From Nitrospirales bacterium (lineage in GTDB: Bacteria; Nitrospirota; Nitrospiria; Nitrospirales; UBA8639), in assembly GCA_963422365.1 (NCBI GenBank), contig OY729426.1, forward strand, positions 96,001 through 160,000: a stretch of 64,000 nt of DNA, written 5' to 3'. The notes under the pieces are model-generated. The model saw only the letters and a list, made by a program, of their open reading frames with translations. It was not told the origin of the DNA and did not search any database. Numbering within the stretch: position 1 is the first letter of the stretch; each line of letters starts with the position of its first letter. The position numbers and the translations under genes were made by a program. This document shows, in pieces, positions 51,277-64,000 of this stretch.

Positions 51277-52317
51277 ATGCCTCAATTTGACATTCTCGCG
51301 GAACAGGTGCTGCAGGGCCATTCGGTCACCCGTGAAGAAGGCTTGGAGATACTCCAAACCAACGACGCCCAACTCTTACCCCTTCTCAATGCCGCGTATA
51401 AGATTCGTCACGCCTATTTTGGTCGAAAAGTGACCATCCAAATGTTGTTCAATGCGAAAAGCGGCGCTTGTCAGGAAGATTGCCACTATTGTTCGCAATC
51501 CAGTATCTCCACCGCTTCCATTGACCGCTATGCGTTAGTAGCCCCGGAGGAAATGCTCAAGGGTGCTCATCGGGCCTATGAGGCCAAAGCCCAACGATAC
51601 TGTGTGGTGATCAGCGGAAGAAGCCCGCTCGACAAAGAAATGAACGACATTGCCGCTGCGGTGAAGCAGATCAAACAGGAACTTCCCATGCAGGTCTGCT
51701 GTTCCTTGGGACTCCTCACCGAACCCCAGGCCAGACAACTCAAAGCCGCCGGCGTCGATCGCATCAACCACAATTTAAACACGAGCGAAACCTATCACGC
51801 CTCCATCTGCACGACCCATACGTATCAAGATCGGCTGACCACCTTACAACACGCCCGAGCCGCCGGATTAGAGTTGTGTTCAGGCGGGATTGTCGGGATG
51901 GGAGAATCCGATGAAGATCTTCTCGATCTTGCCTTCGCCCTGCGAGACATCAACCCCGACTCGATTCCATTGAATATGCTGCATCCGATTCCAGGAACCC
52001 CCTTAGCCGACGCCACGCATCCCCGATTCGATCCCCAATCAGGCCGGGGACAAGCGTCGGGAACAGGCTTGACTCCGCACCGATGCCTCACCATCTTCTG
52101 CCTGTTTCGTTTTCTCCATCCGCGACGGGAACTCCGCGCGGCCGGCGGACGTGAGTTCAATCTTCGATCCCTGCAACCTCTGGCCCTGTACGTCGCGGAT
52201 TCGCTGTTCGTCAACGGCTATTTAACGACCCAGGGAGACCCTGCCCACGAAGTGCAACGAATGATTGAAGACATGGGCTTTAAAGTGGCGATCCATTCAC
52301 CAACCTGCCAAGCTTAA
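51277..52317 (+). CDS. bioB: Biotin synthase (radical SAM)
   Basis: KSGACQEDCHYCSQS, NHNLNTS, CSGGIVGMGE, GYLTT. Confidence 0.96.
   Translation: MPQFDILAEQVLQGHSVTREEGLEILQTNDAQLLPLLNAAYKIRHAYFGRKVTIQMLFNAKSGACQEDCHYCSQSSISTASIDRYALVAPEEMLKGAHRAYEAKAQRYCVVISGRSPLDKEMNDIAAAVKQIKQELPMQVCCSLGLLTEPQARQLKAAGVDRINHNLNTSETYHASICTTHTYQDRLTTLQHARAAGLELCSGGIVGMGESDEDLLDLAFALRDINPDSIPLNMLHPIPGTPLADATHPRFDPQSGRGQASGTGLTPHRCLTIFCLFRFLHPRRELRAAGGREFNLRSLQPLALYVADSLFVNGYLTTQGDPAHEVQRMIEDMGFKVAIHSPTCQA
52022..52061. repeat. In-frame palindromic (REP/RPE-like) insertion within bioB
   Basis: CCCGA..TCCCC..GGGGA..TCGGG nested inverted repeats, encoding the extra peptide PRFDPQSGRGQASG. Confidence 0.6.
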
Positions 52318-55300
52318 TCCCACCCGCAACGTCTCTTGCCGACGTTCGCTACCGATTAGCGAGTCACTCGACTCCCACCTTTTTTTTATCCTTGAACAAT
52401 AGCCGCGCTTCATTTTTCCCGACCTCGTAGTTTTTTCTCATAAACAGTAATGGTATTCTTAACGTCCCTATGGGAAAGACCGACAAATATACCGCTTCAA
52501 ATATCAACGACCCTGCCCGTAACCGCGCCTTACGCCTTATACAATACCTTCAAGCATTAGCTGACCTTCGTACGAAAATCATTCGAGACGTGAAAGACTA
52601 TGAGCATATTCTCTGGTTGCACGAAATTCCTCGTGAAAAGGAGTGTTTCACACAAGCATGGGGCCCCAATATGATGATCGTGAGCCAGATATCTGGATTG
52701 AAGTTCAAAAGAGAGACGAACCAGTTCGACCGAGGGTTCCGAAAGTCTGCGACACATGGGTGAACCAAGAAACGTTAAAAAATACTGAGAACTTCCCTGA
52801 ACTCTTCCCTACAATCAGCGTTGCAGTGGAAGAGCAAGATCAAAAAGAAGACACCTTGTCGCCAGCGTACGAAAAACGAAACCTGGAAGATTATCCCGAC
52901 GTTCGGAAAGCTTGGGACCGATACCGGAAAAATGAGTGGCTGCCCTGGATGGAATCACATCGCGATTGGGCCACTGTACAAAATGTCTACACCGAACTGT
53001 TCACCATCTATCAAGGACAAAAGCGTCTAGGCGAAGAATATGAATTGCTCGTGGGCATTGGTCTTCTGACCTGGCAAACGCCTTCGGGGCACACCGTCCG
53101 CCGACATCTTGTCACAGCAAAAGCCAGCTTGGGTTTCAAATCCACACTCGGCAAATTCGAAGTTATTCCAGACCCTGACGGCGCAAAACTCTCTGCCGAA
53201 TTAGATATGCTGGATGCCACAGAGCAACCTCTCCACGCTCAACAGTCGGCAATGGAAGGGTTGCGTTCCGCGGATGACAATCCTTGGGATCGCGCTTCTG
53301 TTGACGCCGTCCTCCATGCACTCGCAAAAAAGTTGGACGCTCTTGGCGAATACCACCACGCATCGCTGAAACCACGTCAATCGAAGGCTGACAAAAAACC
53401 CTTTGTCGAATTCGCTCCGGCACTGATTGTCCGAAAACGATCCTTAAAAGGACTTCAGGAAACCCTAGCTAAAATGTGTTCCCAAATAAGCAAGGGCGGT
53501 GAACTGCCACATGCATTTCTGGATCTCGCTGAAGGCAGAATAGACCCTGGAATAAGCGGGCCAGACACATCCGGTACGAATGGCACAGACAAAACGGAAC
53601 CACCAATCTATTTCCCCAAACCTTCTAATGATGAGCAACGCCGAATCATCAAGACCCTTGGTTCAACCAGCGGCGTGTTGGTACAAGGCCCCCCTGGAAC
53701 AGGGAAGTCTCACACCATCGCCAATCTTATCTGTCATCTCCTCGCAACAGGACAAAAAGTGTTGGTCACTGCCCAAACCCCAAGGGCCTTGGACATTCTG
53801 CACAATCATCTTCCAGAAAAGATTCGTCCTTTGTGTATTAGTCTCTTGGGGAGTGAAAGTAAAGAACAACGTGCGCTCGAGGCGAGTGTGAGCGGGATTT
53901 TAGATCGGCAAACGGAATGGAGTGAATCACACGCGACCTCAGAAGTGACCCGACTCAAGAAAAAACTCCATCAAGTACGGAAGGAAAAGGCTGAAACCGA
54001 ATTCAGACTCCGATCGATTCGAGAATCCGAAACGCGTGAACAGTCCATCCTAGATGGAGCCTATCACGGAACTGCAGCGAACATTGCACGACAACTCAAC
54101 CAGGAATCGACTGAATATGATTGGCTGACCGATCCCATACGGCACGACCAAGAAATGCCAATCGCTCCCAGGGACCTAGAAAAGCTGAGACAGGAATTAA
54201 CCAATTTCAGCCCCGAGTTAGAAGCGGAACTGAAATTGAGCATGCCTGACCCTAAACAAGACTGTATCGACGTGGAAAGATTTAAGGCACTTGTTCAACA
54301 AGAAATCGAAACAAGAGAAAGCCTGGAATCCGATCAGGCATTCTTGAATTCCCCAAGAGATACGATCCAACTGGTAGACATTCAGCACGTCCATCGAATG
54401 ATCGAGGCTATGGAATCACTGATCGCTGAGGTTCAAAGCATCAAAGCACTGCCCATGCCGTGGATCGAGTCAGCTATCCATGAGATGTTATCGGGCAATG
54501 ATCGACCCTGGAAGGAACGTCGCCGCGTCTCTGACGATCACTTGAGAGGGTTAAGCGAACGGGCGGAAAAAATTGATCGGCAAAAACTGGATGCTCCGGG
54601 CAGTCTTGACCGACAAAAGCTGTTAAACGATGCAAAGACTCTCAAGCAACATTTCGACCATGGTGGAACAATCCGGTGGCTGTGGTTCCTCAATAAGAAG
54701 ATCGTCAAAAACAACGAAAATCTCATCAGACATGTTCACCTTGATGGCCATCCGTGCGATACATCCGGAGTGCTAGAGAAGCTCATTGAATATCTCTCCG
54801 TAGAACAAGCCATTGAATACGTTTGGAATATATGGAAGGGAAAAGCTGACCGGCGGGAAGGCTCTTTTCTCATGCAGGTAGTGGAACTCGACGCACTCTT
54901 GCATGCCCTGACTCGGGTTATCGGTCTTGAGGATCCACTGGAGCATGCCAAAGCTCGCGTCCGACAGGATCCAAGAATACCCGAACCGGTGTGGCATGAC
55001 TTGGATGCTCTCAGGCAATTCCTCAATACCTGCCGATTTGTCATTCAAAAACGTAAACTGGAAAGCGTTCAAGAAGCATTGAGCGAGGGTATCTCCGGCA
55101 TTCGAGCCTTTACCCATCGTGAATCATGCCATCCTTCGGCACAAGAAGCTCTGGATTCCATGCGAAGCCGCGATGTGGAGGCCTATGAGAACATTGTGCG
55201 CCGACTTGTCGAACTTCAGCAATGGTCAGAACGGGTAGCGTGGACAGAATCGACCCTCGACCGCCTTAAGCCCATTGCACCGATGTTCGCAAAAGCATTG

Positions 55301-57082
55301 AAGGAATCCTGCCGAGACGAACAGTGGATGAACCGAATTCGTTCAGTGGAACAGGCTTGGAAGTGGACACGAGCATATTCTTGGCTTCGTGACTTTCTCA
55401 ATGCTAATGACGTTCCTGGCTTAGAACGGTGAGCAAAACAACTCGAGGAAGATGAGAGGGATACGCTGGCTACCCTTGCTGAAATGCAGGCCTGGACATT
55501 CTGCTTCACGCGGTTACAGGAGGAACATCGAAGACATCTGGTTGGATGGCAACAGGCAATAAAAAGAATCGGGAAAGGCACTGGCAAGAGTGCTCCAAGA
55601 CATCGCCGAGACGCGCAACAACATTTGAATAAATGTCGGGAGGCCATTCCTGCCTGGGTCATGCCTCTTCATCGACTGTGGGATACCGTCGATCCGTCAC
55701 CTGGCATGTTCGACGCGATTATCGTCGACGAAGCATCCCAATGCGGGCCGGATTCCCTCCCATTGATGTATCTGGGGAAAAAGCTCTTGGTTGTCGGAGA
55801 CGATCAGCAAATCAGCCCTGAGGCCGTAGGCATTGATGACAATAGTCGGCGCCAACTTATACAGGAACATTTGCATGACTTTGAACATGCTGATTCATTT
55901 GATATGGAAAGCAGTTTATTTGCCCATGGATGTCGCCGCTTTGGCAATCGGATTGTGTTACGAGAACATTTTCGGTGTATGCCCGAAATTATTCGATTCA
56001 GTAACGACCTGTGTTATCACGACACGCCACTTATCCCTCTCCGCCAGTATCCACCGGACCGACTGGAACCACTAACCATTATTCACGTGCCGAGTGGATA
56101 TAGGGAAGGGGATGGTGCAAGGGCCATGAACCGTCCCGAGGCCGAAGCCCTTGTGAAACGGGTCATCCAATGTTGTCAGGACGAACGTTACAACGAAAAA
56201 ACCATGGGTGTCATCACGCTTCAAGGCACGGCACAGGCTCAGATCATTGAAAGTATGTTGGTGAAAGAATTGGGGGCGGAGGAGATGGAAAAGCGAAGAC
56301 TGATTTGCGGCACTCCTTCCCATTTTCAAGGGGATGAACGAGAGATTATCTTTCTTTCCATGGTCGCCGCTCCCAACGAACGTATTGGACCTTTGACGAC
56401 AGAATCGTACAAAAGACGGTTCAACGTGGCGGCGAGTCGAGCCAAAGATCAAATGTGGTTATTCCATACGGCAACGCGAAACGACCTGATTGACGCCTGT
56501 CTACGAAAGCAGCTGCTTGAATTTTTCAACAACCCAGAAAGCCAAATTACTCAGGCACTTGGAGAAGAAGCCGAGCAATTGAGAGAAAAAGCACGCTTTG
56601 CTAACCGTGGAATTGAGAAACCACCAAATCCGTATGACAGTTGGTTTGAAGTAGACGTATGCCTAGCCATCGCTGCAAGAGGGTATCGGATCGTGCCGCA
56701 ATATCCGATTGCGGGAAAACACATCGATCTGGTCGTTGAGGGCAACAAATCGCAACTTGCCGTTGAATGCGACGGCGATCATTGGCATGGTGCAGACAAA
56801 CATCAAGAGGACATGGAACGACAAAGAAAGCTGGAGCGTGCGGGATGGAGGTTCTACCGAATTCGTGGAAGCTCCTTTAATGCCAATCCGGAAGCGGCCA
56901 TGGAAAGTCTGTGGACTCTGCTTCGGGAGCTGGAAATTTTCCCCGTCGGCTCTTCCCGCGATGCATCAGAGGAAACACCCAAGCCTGAAGAACAGCCTCA
57001 TCACAATCCTTTCGAGGAGTCGACACCCACCCAACCCGTTGCTGGACCTACTATCGAGGCAACGGTGCAGGAGGGGCACCCA

Positions 57083-57188
57083 GTAGAAAGTCAATCACTA
57101 CACGGAACAGTTTTAGATCTGGCCGGCAGCGCAGTGGCCGCGGTGGTGACACTGGTAGAAAGTCAATCACTACACGGAACAGTTTTAG
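57083..57188 (+). repeat. 34-bp perfect direct repeat separated by a 38-bp GC-rich segment
   Basis: GTAGAAAGTCAATCACTACACGGAACAGTTTTAG at 57083-57116 and 57155-57188; the 72-bp period keeps the frame. Confidence 0.95.
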
Positions 57189-57244
57189 GCTCCGCACCCA
57201 CCCCACAGGATGAGCAGACAGAAAACTTCGCTTCGGCAGAAGCT

Positions 57245-57409
57245 CTCTCGCTGACTTCTCGTCAAAAAGAAATTCTCCGACTCGTGGCCCAAGGTCACAC
57301 AAATCGAGAAATCGGCGAACAACTTGATATCAGCGTCCGGACGGTTGAAGTTCACCGATTTAATCTGATGCGGCGCCTCCGCGTGCGAAACGTAGCCCAA
57401 CTTCTCAGA
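57245..57409 (+). repeat. 165-bp copy of the LuxR HTH coding segment (paired with 62671-62835)
   Basis: Hand alignment: 150 of 165 nt identical, 53 of 55 aa identical. Confidence 0.95.
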
Positions 57410-58362
57410 AAAATGACTGATGAAGAAATTGAGTTCGATGGATAACAGGCACCTTACACCCATTGGCCAAAAGCCGTTCTTCCTGACCCTCAGTCCGCTA
57501 TCATTGATGAAATCATAAGCGGTCTCCTCGCAATCATTTCAGTGAAAGGACCAATCGTCTGTCACAGGGCTTATTTTTTGTATGCCGGAGCTGTCGATCC
57601 GCCAATAATGAAAGTGGTAAGACAAATCCGATCAACTTTTGATAAAGCAATTCGTCAAGCTTTACGACGGGGACTCATTGAAGGAACAGATGAACGCGGA
57701 AACCGTGAATGGTATTGCCTGATCGTTCGTAAGGTAGGCACGCCACCTGTGGTGGTGCGCAAACGAGGAAACAGGGACTTTGATGAGATTCCTCCTTCGG
57801 AATTGAGGGCGTTAATGAATGACCTTTATCGCCAAAATCTCAACCAAAACGATGATCAACTTCTTCAATCTGTAAGGGTCCGATATGATTTCGGACGGAT
57901 GACGTCTGATATGAGAAAGAAATTGTTGAGGATGAGAGGATGAAGCAGCAATATTTTCAATAAAGGTTCTCTGGCAAGGCGGTATCATCAAGTGGATGTG
58001 CCGACATTCGTCAACGACGTACGCACTCATAGACGGAAGACCGGTTGAATGGCGTCAAATTTTTCTTTGACTTCGGGATGTATTTTCTCCGGCAGCATCA
58101 CGGCAGCGATGTCATTGAAGCGGGTCTAAGGAAAGCCATGTAATCCGGCCGCATCCAGAATCGGCGGAATGACTGCTGTTCTCGCCTTACGTTGTTGCCT
58201 ATACGCGTCGACCAAAGGATTGGGCTTTAGGAAAAGGCAGGCGTGAAGGTCTGCTCCAGATAGGCCAACGTATCTTTCCTGGCTTCTGCCGAAAAAGCCC
58301 CGGCACCTACTTCCTTCTCAATAAACCGTTCCAGTGCTCTCGGGTGTACGAGCAAGGGCTAT

Positions 58363-59184
58363 TTACGCACGGCCATTGACTGACCAGAGATGGGAACAGC
58401 CAGAGGTATCCCGTTGGCTCCAGCGATAGATTGCATCACTGTAACCGTGGAGGATGGCCACTGTCTGATCACGAACCTGTCGAAATGTCTCTTACGACTC
58501 ATCCGTCAGCGGATCTGCTGACGGAATATCATTGAGTACAACGACTCTTTGCGCGGCTGGACGTGTTTCTTTCAGTTCCATCCATGTGAACGACACAAAC
58601 TTCGCCGTTTGTGACAAAGGGCTTCGAATGAGTTTGACGAGCCGCTCGGCTTTCCGTGGCAAGGGAATGACGAAGTCGATGGGATGTTCAACCGTGCCTC
58701 CTGGTATGGTTACATTTGCAGTATAAAGAACCTTCCGTTGATCAAGAAACTCGCCAACCAGTTCAAAAAAGTCAGTGAAAGTATAGGGAACGTGACTCAT
58801 CCAGAGATCATGAAGCCGCAAAACAGCAGTGAGTAAAAAATACGCGCGCGGAGAAAGGTTCGTCGCAGACGCAGCAGCTTCCAAACGCCCATTGGCAAGA
58901 CGAACGGCACAGCCGGCCCTTGCACGTTCGACCAAAGCTTGACGCCGCTCAGAATCCTCAATCTTGATCCCCAAGCATTGGAGGCATTCAATGGTGTCGC
59001 CGTTATCATGAAGAATATCATCTCCGTGATGGTGTTCGACATAGATCTGAATGCCGTCATGAAATGGATCCAGAAATGGTGTACTCAGTACGGAGACATC
59101 CCCTCGTTGGAAAGTCTTGAACCTGTCACGAAGCCAAGTGAGATAATCTTTGGCCAGATCTGGCTGTAGAAATGCGGGCGTCAT
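58363..59184 (-). pseudogene. DUF1828/DUF1829-like protein with premature stop
   Basis: YLTWLRD...STPFLDPFHDGIQIYV...LHDNGDT; after TAA 58492-58494 the frame continues ETFRQ...ILHGYSDAIYRWSQRD. Confidence 0.72.
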
Positions 59185-59599
59185 TTCAAGTCCATATTCA
59201 CTTGGATGCCGTTTGCGAAACTGGCTTTGATGATTGTAAGAAAATGTTCTAGAGTGACAGAAGGGTCCCTAAAGTCACACCAAGTTACTGGCTCTGCCCA
59301 GGCTAATCCAAAGCCCTCCCGAACGACATGCAAGTGTGATTGATTGAGAATTTCCGTTCCATCCGGAGTAGGGCGATAGGGACTGTTGTCGAGGCGAAAG
59401 AGGCCAATACCGCGGTCCTTGGTTCGACAGTGCAGCCGAATTCCAAATGGATTCCGTTTCATCGAAAGGATACATTGAAGTCCTTTATCCGTTCTTGCAA
59501 TCTATGAGTTCATTTTCCATCCTCTCTGCTTGCCAGTTTAGAGGATCAGATCTTGTTGCTTCTTTGGCGATCTCGATCTGCTTGCGCTTGCGTTAACAT
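59181..59599 (-). pseudogene. DUF6978-like protein, frameshifted
   Basis: MLTQAQADR start, frameshifts, then LFRLDNSPYRPTPDG...HLHVVREGFGLAWAEP; coupled (ATGA) to the DUF1828-like gene. Confidence 0.68.
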
Positions 59600-59810
59600 T
59601 CGTTCAAATTTTTCACAATCAGTAACTCGTTCCCTCGGTCGTCGATCACTTTCACGGCAATCTGCTTGTGCTCACCAGCCTGGAATTGGCGCACTCATGG
59701 TGCCTGAGAGATGATCCAAGACGCTTTCTTCACAATCACCCCTCAAAGCCTTTCGAATGAAAAGTGGCTTGGTACAGCCATGGAGTTTTGACCTCTTTTG
59801 GATCAAAACA
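59593..59810 (-). pseudogene. C-terminal remnant of a site-specific DNA methyltransferase (Mod-like)
   Basis: KALRGDCEESVLDHLSGTMSAP, frameshift, FQAGEHKQIAVKVIDDRGNELLIVKNL*. Confidence 0.7.
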
Positions 59811-59869
59811 AAGCCCTGACGGTGGGAATAAAACAGAATAATAACTCACACTGTAAAGAAATTCTTTCA

Positions 59870-62446
59870 TCACTCGTACCGCAACCCATCCGCGATGACG
59901 CCGCTGGTGGCCCAACGAGCCGGAAGATAGCCGGCAACCAGCCCCGTGATCCCCGCGATGAGCACGGCTTCCAGGATGGTCTTGAAGGGGAGGATCATGT
60001 GAATGGTCCACCCGAAGGACTGCTTGTTGATCACACCAATCAGCAAGGCTGCGAGTAAAACCCCACCAAGGATCCCCAGGCCCAACCCTAACAATCCCAG
60101 ACACAGCGATTCTCGAACGACCAACCCTTGCACCTGCCTCCTGCTTGCTCCAATCGCGCGAAACGTCGCAAACTCCCGTTGTCGTTCGATCACCGTCGTC
60201 AAGAGGGTATTCATGATTCCAAGCAGCCCGACGATCACCGCGACCACTTCCAACCCATAGGTCAACCGAAAGGTTCGGTCAAACACTTCCAGAATATCGG
60301 TCCGCAATTCTTTGTTGCTGATAATCGACACCGGCAAAAGCGGATCGAGCGCCTTTTTCAGATCCCTCCGTACGTGTTGACTGCTCACGTGAGGCTCCAG
60401 ATAAATTGCCAGCACCGTCGCGGTCGCATCACCCCACCATTCCTGGTAGATCGATCGGTCGAGAACCATCTTTCCACCATCCGTCGTATAATCGTAAAAG
60501 ACTCCCACCACCGTGAAATCCTTCTGCCCCATGGCAGTCGGCAAAGACAGCACATCGCCGACCCTGACCCCGAGTCGATGCGCGAACACTTCAGAAACCA
60601 CCACACCCTTTTCTTTGATCGCTTGGCGGAGACGGTCGGAAGACTCTCCGTTCATAAACAGGTATTGACTCCGTTCCGCATGCAGGGAGAGATCTCGCGC
60701 CACGAGAGAAGCCTGGGTGGATCCAACTGGAATGCGCACTTGACGATAGGGGTCAACGGCTGCTACGCCCGGGACCGCCCGGGCTCGCTGAACCGTTTCC
60801 GGTGAAAGAACCGTTTCGAATTGATGGGCATCCAATCCTTCAACGGGCGGGGTCACAATCAGATCCGCCATGAGGGTCTGATCGATCCATCGTTCAACGG
60901 TATCGCGGAAACTCTCTACCATTACTCCCACCCCCACCACGATGGCAATGCCCACCATAAAGGCCGACAACGTGACCCTAGTTCGTCCCGAAGACCGGAC
61001 AATCTGGTCGACGACAAGGTGCGCCATCGACCCCGAAGACGTTTTGAAGAAAACCGACGTTGCCAGACCCAGAAGATGAATGCCGAGAGGAGCAAGGAAG
61101 GTGCACCCCAGCAAGACACAAAACGCCGCTGCATATCCAAACAAGGGAAGCCCATTGACCGGACCAGATAAGGAGAGAACCCCAGCCACCCCCAATACAG
61201 CCATGGCCAATACAGTCCATCGACCATGATGATGGTGACGATTGGCTTCATTTTGCCCAGGAGCCAAGGCCAGAGCCGGAGCCGTCTGACTCGCTTCCCA
61301 GCAAGGTACCAATGCCCCCATCAAGGACAGAGCCATGCCCAATAGACCGCCTCCTACCAACACCAGAGGACGGAATGCAGACACTCCCTGAGCCTCCATT
61401 CCGTAGAGTTCGGAAACCGTTTCCTGCTCAAGCCCGACAAGCCAATGAGCCAAGCCGCTACCGAACACGGCCCCGAGTCCACCGCCAACGGCGCCGACTA
61501 TGATCGCCTCACCGAGAAACAACAGGCCAATCTGCAGCCGTACCATGCCTAGAGCACGGAACATGCCGATTTCTCGCCGATATTGCACAACAGAAAATCC
61601 TACGGCGTTGTAGACCAAAAACATGCCGACAAAGAGCCCGACCATACCGAGGGTGGTGAGATTCATCTGAAACGACGTGAGCATACGCTGCACCTGTGCA
61701 TTACGTTGTGATGAGCGCGTGACCAAAACCGAAGACCCTAGCCGTTCTTGAAGCTCCTGAATCACATGCTCCACCGATACGCCGGGGGTCGTCACGAGGT
61801 CCAATCCATCAAGCTGGCCCAGCCGCGCAAATTGCACTTGGGCAGCGGCAATATCCATGATGACCAGGGGTCCCCACCGCTTTTCAGTGCGGGCAAGCTG
61901 GAACACTCCACGCACGGTCGTTTGGAATTGACGCGAGCCGACACGTACCACCACAGGATCACCCCGGACCACCCCTAAGCTCGTCGCCACATCGCGGTCC
62001 ACAAAGAGTGCCTCGACACTGAGCAGGGGATCCAAGGAGAATTCCTGTTGCGGAGAGACTTGCCACTCGCCCGTCTTTTCGTTGACCAGCGCCAACATGT
62101 CCAGCCCCCACACTGTACTCATGTGGGTGTTTCCTTGATCCGTTTCGAGAGTGACTGATTGGGCAACATAAGGATGAAGGGTTTGGACGTCGGGATGCAC
62201 ACGGATCTGCTCAATGAGCGTTTCATCAATTCGATGTTCGGCTCCCGAGATATGAATCGTAGCCGCTCCCACCACTTGTCTCACGGTTCGTTGAAACGCC
62301 TCAAATACGGTTTGATTCGCCAGAGACATGGCCAGGGCGGCCGCCACTCCCACGCCGACTCCAACCACGGTCAGTGAGGTTCTGAAAGGTCGGCTCGTCA
62401 GGTGTTTGAAAGCCAAAATCCCGAATAGGAAGAGCCATTGTGACAA
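59870..62446 (-). CDS. ABC transporter permease with duplicated MacB/FtsX domains
   Basis: RREIGMFRALG, REFATFRAIGA, INKQSFGWT, terminal LRYE. Start is uncertain. Confidence 0.9.
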   Translation of the reverse strand: MSQWLFLFGILAFKHLTSRPFRTSLTVVGVGVGVAAALAMSLANQTVFEAFQRTVRQVVGAATIHISGAEHRIDETLIEQIRVHPDVQTLHPYVAQSVTLETDQGNTHMSTVWGLDMLALVNEKTGEWQVSPQQEFSLDPLLSVEALFVDRDVATSLGVVRGDPVVVRVGSRQFQTTVRGVFQLARTEKRWGPLVIMDIAAAQVQFARLGQLDGLDLVTTPGVSVEHVIQELQERLGSSVLVTRSSQRNAQVQRMLTSFQMNLTTLGMVGLFVGMFLVYNAVGFSVVQYRREIGMFRALGMVRLQIGLLFLGEAIIVGAVGGGLGAVFGSGLAHWLVGLEQETVSELYGMEAQGVSAFRPLVLVGGGLLGMALSLMGALVPCWEASQTAPALALAPGQNEANRHHHHGRWTVLAMAVLGVAGVLSLSGPVNGLPLFGYAAAFCVLLGCTFLAPLGIHLLGLATSVFFKTSSGSMAHLVVDQIVRSSGRTRVTLSAFMVGIAIVVGVGVMVESFRDTVERWIDQTLMADLIVTPPVEGLDAHQFETVLSPETVQRARAVPGVAAVDPYRQVRIPVGSTQASLVARDLSLHAERSQYLFMNGESSDRLRQAIKEKGVVVSEVFAHRLGVRVGDVLSLPTAMGQKDFTVVGVFYDYTTDGGKMVLDRSIYQEWWGDATATVLAIYLEPHVSSQHVRRDLKKALDPLLPVSIISNKELRTDILEVFDRTFRLTYGLEVVAVIVGLLGIMNTLLTTVIERQREFATFRAIGASRRQVQGLVVRESLCLGLLGLGLGILGGVLLAALLIGVINKQSFGWTIHMILPFKTILEAVLIAGITGLVAGYLPARWATSGVIADGLRYE

Positions 62447-62604
62447 AATTTGTTTCCCGAAATCTCGTTGTGGTAGTTTACGACAATCCAATTGAATTGT
62501 TGAAAAAGCCGACCAATGGACAGCTTGCTTTTGAAAAAATTTTGAACAATGCAACAAGTTCCTCAGGTTCAGATACAGCACTGAAGAAGACGCGGGCGTC
62601 TCTT

Positions 62605-62895
62605 ATGGCCACAGTCAAGCCAAGTCATCGAGAAATCAAAGGAAACTCGAAAGAACAAACTGAAGAGACGCTCTCTCTGACTGCTCGTCAAAAAGAAATT
62701 CTTCGACTCGTCGCCCAAGGTCATACGAATCGGGAAATCGGAGAACAACTGGATATCAGCGTCCGGACGGTTGAAGTTCACCGGTTTAATCTGATGCGAC
62801 GACTCCACGTGCGAAACGTGGCCCAGCTTCTCAGACAAGGGATGCGCTTACGCCTCATCCCGAAAAGTACCGTTCCCACAAGTAAAGCCCCCTAA
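62605..62895 (+). CDS. Stand-alone LuxR/GerE-family HTH transcriptional regulator
   Basis: LTARQKEILRLVAQGHTNREIGEQLDISVRTVEVHRFNLMRRL; no receiver domain. Confidence 0.92.
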   Translation: MATVKPSHREIKGNSKEQTEETLSLTARQKEILRLVAQGHTNREIGEQLDISVRTVEVHRFNLMRRLHVRNVAQLLRQGMRLRLIPKSTVPTSKAP

Positions 62896-63029
62896 CCTGG
62901 TGCTTTTTGCTCCATCCGAAAATGTCCCTTGAAGGTTGCTCGAACGAGCCAACAACCGGCCTGTCTTTTGCGTGGAGCACAAAGAGGAAAGAGGTTGGCG
63001 GTCACACGTGGGAAAACGGGGATTTGGGG

Positions 63030-63968
63030 TCAGAGTTCTTGTAACGTTCCGCGACATTCCAAAAGGGAGCGGTACCCCTTTTTGTCCAAAATTTCGCTGA
63101 GTTCCTTTTCCAACCGTTGAAAGACCCCGACACCTTCCTCGACGAGTGCCGTTCCAATTTGCACGGCGGAAGCCCCGCATAAAATATGTTCAAACACATC
63201 CGTACCCGAGACAATCCCCCCTGTTCCAATAATCGGCATCCGGCCATCGAATACCTTCCAAAACGCCCGCACATTCGCTAAGGCCACGGGTTTAATCATT
63301 GTTCCACCAAGACCGCCAAATCCGCCTTTCGGCTTGATCGCCACGCATTCCTTCTCCGGATCGACCACTAACCCATTTCCTACGGAATTAATGACTGACA
63401 GAAAGTCGACCCCAACGTCTTGTAACATCCCGGCCGTGGCTTCATGGTGCACCGGATCAAAATACGGAGGGAGCTTGACCCCCATCGGCACGGTGATGAT
63501 GCCTTTCAATTGCAGAAGGAGCGAGCGTGAGGCTTCCAAGTCATAGCCGATTTGCGGCTTTCCCGGGATATTCGGGCAGGACAAATTGACCTCGATGAGG
63601 TCAGGCCGAACGGCCGTGATCGCTTGAGCCGCTTCAAGAAAATCCGGCGTACCGAGCCCGGCGATGCTCGCAATAACGGGTTTCCCAAACCTTCGAAGAG
63701 TTGGAATGATCGCGGCATAGGCCGGATAACCGAGATTCGGCAGCCCCATGGAATTGATGGATCCCCCTGGAAAACTGCAATACCGGGGCTCCGGGTTTCC
63801 TTGCCGGAAAGCCGGGGTCATGGACTTGGTGACGATTGCCCCGCTCCGGGATCGGCCTAAGTGTTCCAGCTCTTCTTGGGTCACGCACAGGGCCCCCGCG
63901 GCATTCATCAGACAGATTGAAAAACGTACATCGGCAAGCGTGGTCGAAAGATCCATGGATGATCTCAT
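63030..63968 (-). CDS. pyrD: Dihydroorotate dehydrogenase, class 1A-like
   Basis: MNAAGALC, GNPEPRY, GSINSMGLPNLG, NLSCPN, KLPPYFD, KPVALANV. Confidence 0.93.
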   Translation of the reverse strand: MRSSMDLSTTLADVRFSICLMNAAGALCVTQEELEHLGRSRSGAIVTKSMTPAFRQGNPEPRYCSFPGGSINSMGLPNLGYPAYAAIIPTLRRFGKPVIASIAGLGTPDFLEAAQAITAVRPDLIEVNLSCPNIPGKPQIGYDLEASRSLLLQLKGIITVPMGVKLPPYFDPVHHEATAGMLQDVGVDFLSVINSVGNGLVVDPEKECVAIKPKGGFGGLGGTMIKPVALANVRAFWKVFDGRMPIIGTGGIVSGTDVFEHILCGASAVQIGTALVEEGVGVFQRLEKELSEILDKKGYRSLLECRGTLQEL

Positions 63969-64000
63969 GTCGTTCCTGGGGCACAGGCAATGGGAGCCTG

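Follow-up and report, generated by a model that had tools for sequence, protein, structure and literature searches.

The helix-turn-helix (HTH) domain of a LuxR-type regulator of Nitrospirales lies in frame inside a helicase-nuclease gene in the 64,000-nt stretch of DNA that we analyzed (the window), and it is very probable that this host domain was both captured and kept under selection. The initial annotation had proposed capture and retention of this kind, and the proposal is now backed by intact fusions in relatives, by repeated capture and by a dN/dS of 0.04 in the HTH versus 0.80 in the linker that precedes it. Features of the window are collected in Table 1.

Table 1. Features of the helicase-nuclease gene, the regulator gene and their surroundings, in window coordinates.
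Feature	Position	Strand	Remarks
Helicase-nuclease gene, broken	52470..57943	+	SF1 (Upf1/Sen1-like) helicase + MTES_1575 nuclease + LuxR HTH + DUF3320-like tail
Frameshift	52668..52671 (near 52669)	+	Two extra bases vs G053 and strain X6
In-frame TGA within helicase	55430..55432	+	Arg codon at this place in G053
REase_MTES_1575 (Vsr/DUF559-like) nuclease domain	56645..56920	+	Pfam PF18741, 101 bits, E 3.8e-29
Linker, fast-evolving, predicted disordered	56951..57244	+	dN/dS 0.80 vs G053; pLDDT<50 in G053 model
Captured LuxR-A HTH, 55 codons	57245..57409	+	Pfam GerE match; nt match to 62671-62835; four helices in G053 model
In-frame TAA	57443..57445	+	11 codons past HTH; separates tail from HTH
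DUF3320-like helical tail	57446..57943 (tail ORF 57542-57943)	+	In frame, behind TAA stop
DUF6978 + DUF1828 pair	58492..59462	-	PADLOC candidate PDC-M24A/B; same island as helicase gene
Stand-alone HTH-only LuxR (LuxR-A)	62605..62895	+	96 aa from conserved ATG (inferred start); longest ORF begins 62440

The match between the fused copy (57245-57409) and the stand-alone copy (62671-62835) is exactly as first described: over 55 codons there are 15 nucleotide differences, 13 synonymous and two replacements (fused/stand-alone, S/A at codon 5 and R/H at codon 46), and both copies are in frame. The two form the longest repeat within positions 52000-64000 (175 nt, 89%; blastn E 1.7e-61 for fused versus stand-alone HTH). 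Pfam GerE (PF00196) matched residues 589-642 of the ORF at 55484-57445 with 66.9 bits (cut-off 23.5), placed after the AAA_12 and MTES_1575/DUF559 matches of the same ORF. The fused domain ends early, and about 10 of the last residues of stand-alone helix 4 are absent. The HTH stands between the nuclease and a DUF3320-like tail, and HTH and tail share a frame, but the TAA at 57443 cuts the tail off. That the fusion is an assembly chimera or other artefact might be suspected because the genome was assembled as a single contig and several frames of this gene are broken, but this was rejected as extremely improbable: contigs X3 and X5 of two studies, one of which may be the source sample of the assembly, show 0 differences from the window across the 5' junction (57159-57355) and, from 57326/57328 onward, across the 3' junction, and the fusion is also found in G003, in independent proteins and, intact, in another species (G053). 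The same contigs span the TGA at 55430 with 0 differences and are identical to the window at the frameshift site. Because they match the window at both junctions and at the covered stops, neither the breaks nor the fusion are assembly errors.

The gene is, as had been reported, broken in this genome (G000) by the frameshift near 52669, the TGA at 55430 and the TAA at 57443. Its whole length of ~1820 codons is now divided among pieces at 52470-52763, 52643-55432, 55484-57445 and 57446-57943, which together have 82% nucleotide identity to the intact G053 gene; the motifs GPPGTGKS, DEASQ and VECDGDHWH lie at 53687, 55727 and 56762, respectively. Within the linker lie an exact 34-nt duplication (57083-57116 and 57155-57188) and a repeat unit, R, which in relatives is found on the flanks of tail modules. 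The tail has 75% amino acid identity to that of G053, and a DUF3320-like tail was present in 139 of the 270 proteins fetched. No Pfam match to the G000 tail was obtained at E<=0.1; in matching tails of relatives, DUF3320 scored above the Pfam cut-off in P0218 and P0189, at the cut-off in P0169 and below it in P0135 and P0261. Proteins P0002 and P0003 and the second copy in G003 end at about the point of the TAA at 57443. The G000 allele is likely a dead pseudogene.

Intact homologs were found both with the HTH (G053, P0001-P0003) and without it (the G003 copy at this site), the two kinds that the initial annotation had proposed to look for. Close copies of the helicase occurred in three of the 38 genomes of the genus. 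In G053, a different species, an intact 1882-aa fusion occupies the same site between bioB and a permease gene, and G003 has its intact copy without the HTH at that site and a decayed fused copy elsewhere. Intact fusions besides G053 are P0001, P0002, P0003 and P0272, all with the helicase and nuclease motifs. GerE was detected in three of the best 120 proteins (P0001-P0003), to which cluster members add P0272, P0274, P0276 and P0277.

Between G000 and G053 the fused HTH has accumulated 19 silent and 3 replacement differences (dS 0.65, dN 0.025), with a dS inside the 0.37-0.70 range of the other regions and the lowest dN of any region. The comparison of the HTH with the linker gave a Fisher p of 5e-7; the nuclease and the helicase each had a dN/dS of 0.16 (p 0.018 and 0.010, respectively, versus the HTH), and two of 20 55-codon windows of the enzyme core were as conserved as the HTH. 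Of the 13 changes that the fused copies of G053 and G003 have in common, 12 are silent, and fused copies have silent changes of their own, absent or rare in 37 stand-alone genes, while the protein is unchanged. At the protein level, P0001 and P0002/P0003 are 95-96% identical in the HTH, 86% in the helicase-nuclease and 53-60% in the linker. In the helicase tree, a starred clade of 13 has G000 as its earliest branch; this tree would fit a single capture of the LuxR-A HTH, and so would the 3' junction, which is shared. The best HTH tree did not unite the three fused A copies in one clade but neither showed nor rejected a single capture (one-clade test, p-AU 0.22), so part of the path between G000 and G053 could be stand-alone history or gene conversion.

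Loss of the domain has been frequent. The HTH is absent from seven of the 13 proteins of the closest clade, the fused copy of G003 has drifted (dN/dS 0.35), and two of the three fused A genes with DNA are broken. Strain X6, which is ~98% identical, has neither the frameshift nor a 72-bp duplication, and a deletion of 111 nt, which keeps the frame, spares 20 of its 55 HTH codons. Taken as a whole, these observations suggest that the HTH module is dispensable.

LuxR-A is a core gene of Nitrospirales with a match in 108 of 115 family genomes; among the 53 rows listed at >=68%, 50 were titled Nitrospira or Nitrospirales and one was labelled Nitrosospira. The HTH matches those of EsrB (7vim), SsrB (2jpc) and FixJ (1x3u) in sequence (E 1e-13 to 7e-9). 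A second HTH-only core regulator, LuxR-B, is identical to LuxR-A at 29 of 55 positions and was matched in 141 of the 151 genomes of family f2, a tally that takes in three unpublished genomes, on which no other result depends; many f2 genomes have 11-14 LuxR-type matches in all. The two HTH-only genes (window 62605-62895 and G000:C1:1496817-1496975) are near-universal and extremely conserved in Nitrospirales, and a third, more distant type was seen in two f3 genomes examined. Damaged luxR-A copies were noted in L061 (G015, frameshift) and L093 (G062, a stop in the second copy), and second HTH matches in G062 and G083, considered as candidate fusions, were rejected as stand-alone copies. Our literature search returned nothing on the two HTH-only regulators, which are likely points of conflict with phages.

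The 13:2 ratio of silent to replacement differences had been read as a sign of selection after capture. This ratio is not diagnostic and was rejected as proof, as stand-alone orthologs differ alike: across 666 pairs of 37 stand-alone LuxR-A genes, the median number of differences was 17 for silent and 3 for replacement changes (G015, whose luxR-A is frameshifted, was excluded from DNA comparisons). Silent-rich differences are the rule among these orthologs because LuxR-A is so strongly conserved. The neighbour at 62671 was likewise not supported as the direct, recent donor, since three other species' genes are nearer to the fused G000 HTH (13 differences from G024 and 14 from both G001 and G005, versus 15 from the neighbour). 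A test of the fused copy and its own LuxR-A as one clade gave a p-AU of 0.27, which neither supports nor rejects that clade. In the HTH tree, six stand-alone genes shared a starred set with the three fused copies for which DNA was available; the gene of G000 was among the six, and those of G053 and G003 were not. From the nearer genes of other species and the placement of the fused copies, the donor appears to have been an ancestor in this gene sub-lineage and not demonstrably the gene at 62671; the fused gene may later have moved between species.

An unindexed search identified P0181, in which the nuclease is followed by the HTH of LuxR-B, and a search based on P0181 yielded six more LuxR-B fusions among 120 proteins (P0280-83, P0285 and P0286; P0285 is the intact fusion of G244). 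The LuxR-B HTH occupies the same slot as the LuxR-A HTH, and the enzyme cores of B and A fusions are 51-55% identical. One clade of all fused HTHs was rejected (p-AU 3e-8), as was one clade of the fused proteins' helicases (p-AU 7e-48), which fell into three separate groups; in a quick tree of 75 of the 338 helicase cores, P0181 was sister to a protein without the HTH. Because the trees reject a single clade for the HTHs and for the helicases, at least two captures, and probably three, took place. These searches started from LuxR-A and were biased to LuxR-A and its nearest paralog. No fusion was found in other phyla, over which the search was uneven, and a scan of JGI metagenomes gave 22 loci, none with the HTH.

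The two kinds of fusion differ in their likeness to the host. Intact A fusions are 93-98% identical to the host domain, and B fusions retain 38-49 of 55 residues of host LuxR-B. Columns 32-40, which we take from NarL to be the core of the third (recognition) helix, are unchanged in all nine A and all seven B fusions (16/16). In the B fusions, 27 of the 55 HTH columns vary, and helix 4, which is shortened in A fusions, is the most changed part (0.38 changes per site). The column test gave p 0.04 for the whole helix (30-44) and 0.001 for 32-40, a range picked after seeing the data. The lysine after N20 has a role in DNA binding by LuxR HTHs; it is replaced by N or E in four of the seven B fusions, which could weaken binding.

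The HTH is one of several modules found in the variable tail of these proteins. In G053, a 127-bp repeat R (83%) stands on either side of the HTH, and R precedes other modules in G003. The layouts observed were tail only, R-HTH-R-tail, R-PLNQ-R-HTH, R-PLNQ-HTH-R-tail, and R-PLNQ in one or two copies; in P0002, P0003, P0181, P0281-83, P0285 and P0286 the HTH is terminal and replaces the usual tail. Wider relatives end in the DUF3320-like tail, another short conserved domain, GreA-C (13 of the best 120 proteins), a PcrA/UvrD Tudor domain (P0220, P0391) or a weak receiver (P0033). The Tudor domains of PcrA and UvrD bind RNA polymerase. PLNQ is a module of 140-168 aa without a Pfam match that forms a one- or two-copy tail cassette in P0002-P0009 and P0020 and is also a free gene in two of 115 genomes. 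These free genes (L258:1468-1974, minus strand, and L259:1459-1965, plus strand, in G042 and G016) adjoin a toxin-antitoxin-like pair, and PLNQ DNA has a GC content of 56-58% versus 46% in the helicase. The ESM Atlas gave only weak, inconsistent matches to PLNQ, and among the viral contigs searched none carried a relative of LuxR-A, of P0181 or of PLNQ. A Trp-rich unit of ~70 aa precedes the LuxR-B HTH in P0280-P0282, P0285 and P0286, and a unit of ~95 aa follows the HTH in P0280 (residues 1765-1863). Another protein, P0221, has 14 LuxR-like HTH repeats in 2854 aa and is unrelated to the helicase. In the G053 model the HTH helices span residues 220-230, 235-242, 246-259 and 265-272 with pLDDT 50-74 (mean pLDDT of the model, 53), and a Foldseek search with this model returned no row at E<=0.001. 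The layouts suggest that modules may be shuffled by recombination at repeat R.

The carrier consists of a split SF1 helicase (AAA_11/AAA_12) followed by an MTES_1575 nuclease, and its solved relatives are Sen1 and Upf1. The best models were those of ProA (NF058533; 225.6 bits over residues 368-1580 of the G053 protein against a cut-off of 1500, with 204.6 for P0002 and 204.1 for P0007) and, in PADLOC, PDC-S37 (228 bits, E 4e-68, profile positions 298-1527 of 1550); Hhe (NF042953) reached 143.9 bits against a cut-off of 2000. DUF4011 had no match in the window ORFs (E<=0.1) or in 21 relatives (E<=0.001). The enzyme resembles a Prometheus-type single-protein system, but neither its score nor DUF4011 makes it a member.

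Between bioB and the gene for the FtsX/MacB-type permease lies a gap (window 52318-59869) whose defence-type genes differ from species to species: the helicase-nuclease gene and PDC-M24 in G000, ParDE and the gene in G053 (L052), a transposase, the gene and an AAA_21 ATPase in G003 (L021), and an E1/E2/JAB/MBL cluster in G001 (L096:1520-6614). In G005 (L097) the gap is only 235 bp. By its content this gap is a defence hotspot, and family likeness together with the island context make a role of the carrier in defence likely. Some further details of the island were noted. The match of the DUF6978 ORF is confined to the second half of the profile, and this ORF may be truncated; the G001 gap genes comprise an MBL hydrolase, JAB, E1, two E2-like genes and one gene that by eye is patatin-like, with no evident cyclase; and bioB of G000 has an extra stretch of ~13 codons (HPRFDPQSGRGQASGTG) at window 52073-52120 that is absent from G053 bioB.

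What the HTH does in such an enzyme can be read in several ways. The best reading, which we hold tentatively, is that of a captured module for targeting DNA or transcription. DNA binding by the fused HTH is suggested by the preserved recognition helix and by the fact that the slot elsewhere holds domains that bind nucleic acid or RNA polymerase. In place of the usual DNA-binding tail, or alongside it, the HTH would act as a label that gives the enzyme its address and would keep it on promoter DNA or on transcription complexes, sites at which transcription of an invader can be attacked. With the recognition core kept and helix 4 shortened (A) or most changed (B), the sequences point to the DNA-binding face being used rather than to pairing with the host protein. 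Against a targeting module stand the frequent losses of the HTH (7/13; the 111-nt deletion in X6), the broken or drifted fused A genes, the replaced lysine in B fusions, the scores far below the ProA and Hhe cut-offs, the missing end of helix 4 in the A fusion, given that LuxR HTHs usually bind DNA as dimers, and the conserved recognition helix itself, which fits a decoy as well. The overall pattern leans toward DNA binding, with the bait reading kept beside it. Should the HTH be no more than an additional DNA-binding domain, the fusion would be a neat case of domain shuffling and not a new kind of system.

Less probable, though a serious possibility, is that the HTH is an integrated decoy that mimics an essential host regulator, so that a phage or mobile-element protein attacking LuxR-A or LuxR-B would bind it and switch the enzyme on. 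Each capture (probably three) used one of the two HTH-only core regulators (108/115 and 141/151 genomes), though f2 genomes often have the 11-14 LuxR-type matches given above; the searches, however, began from LuxR-A, which favours its nearest paralog. The A copy is nearly identical to the host domain in intact fusions, as bait must be, but the B fusions have drifted outside the recognition helix. Scattered gains and losses of the HTH are consistent with an arms race. The carrier is a candidate immune protein, by its likeness to ProA, Hhe and PDC-S37 (below cut-offs) and its defence-type neighbours, and the HTH has features of a decoy, in being a host-derived domain built into another protein by repeated, lineage-variable integration under selection. 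A phage protein that binds a LuxR-type regulator's DNA-binding domain is known, as one report describes the phage inhibitor Aqs1 blocking the DNA-binding face of LasR (PMC13043044). Against a decoy, the HTH sits on long, poorly predicted linkers with no evident route from binding to activation, and there is no known phage trigger. Extending the decoy idea to the family, such that anti-phage helicase-nucleases use integrated decoys and Nitrospirales grafted the HTH of one or the other of two core regulators three times into the repeat-flanked slot, is likewise doubtful; if true, the slot contents (LuxR HTH, GreA-C, Tudor, receiver) would amount to a list of host proteins that phages attack. Within the family, nearly the same enzyme occurs naturally both with the HTH and without it, which makes tether and decoy separable.

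It is improbable that the fused HTH pairs with host LuxR, as a guard or by riding along with it, or represses its own promoter. LuxR-family heterodimers exist, the A fusions are near identical to the host protein, and the two genes lie 3-5 kb apart in G000 and G053. However, helix 4, the usual dimer surface of LuxR proteins, is incomplete in A fusions and has changed more than any other part in B fusions, and no shared palindrome was seen by eye upstream of five helicase genes or in the luxR-A upstream alignment. A predicted complex of the fused HTH with host LuxR-A scored 0.03, which carries no weight either way. We also consider it quite unlikely that the HTH is a neutral passenger, picked up from nearby DNA by a repeat-flanked, disordered tail and similar to its donor through recent origin or gene conversion, with no function. 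Repeat R flanks the HTH in G053, the donor gene is close by, loss and decay are frequent, and the same tail also took up an unrelated island gene. Against this stand the silent changes specific to fused copies while the protein stayed fixed, the in-frame position of every capture, each covering the whole four-helix domain, and the divergence of B fusions everywhere but in the recognition helix.

In the full-text literature, with subscription journals largely uncovered and domain tables in supplements that could list it, we found no description of a LuxR HTH on an SF1 helicase-MTES nuclease. A recent, datable capture of a host transcription factor domain by a likely immune enzyme, with two paralogs involved, is the pattern of integrated domains in plant NLRs, which were defined by such captures. 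Among known systems, Prometheus (ProA) is likewise a large single protein with a split Upf1/DNA2-like SF1 helicase, an MTES_1575 nuclease and a DUF3320-like end; the enzyme described here differs in scoring far below the cut-off of 1500, in having no DUF4011 match and in a tail with a host LuxR HTH. Hhe, Mokosh MkoA/MkoC and PDC-S37 share the SF1 helicase and nuclease region (the Mokosh matches cover the helicase part only), and to our knowledge none of them has been described with a LuxR HTH. C-terminal variants of Prometheus, including an added WYL domain, are described in PMC13700489. The HTH itself resembles the LuxR/FixJ/GerE type in sequence and in its predicted four-helix fold (Foldseek rows had E above 0.001), and differs in that the donors here are HTH-only, with an unstudied regulon, and in that helix 4 of the A fusion is incomplete at its end. 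Integrated-decoy receptors, such as plant RRS1-WRKY and, in PMC11702601, a proposal for bNACHT11 that so far states the integrated-domain idea as a hypothesis for bacterial immunity, also place a host transcription factor's DNA-binding domain in a likely immune protein in a lineage-variable way; here the carrier is a helicase-nuclease and not an NLR, with no known effector or trigger. Finally, conflict proteins fused to GreA/B-C, for which Kaur et al. (2021; PMC8195603) predicted that the fused domain directs defence nucleases to RNA polymerase, join a host transcription domain to a nuclease effector, and GreA-C fills the same slot in the present family; the fusions described here differ in that the donor is a lineage-specific transcription factor whose capture, which happened more than once, is recent enough for 91% DNA identity to persist.
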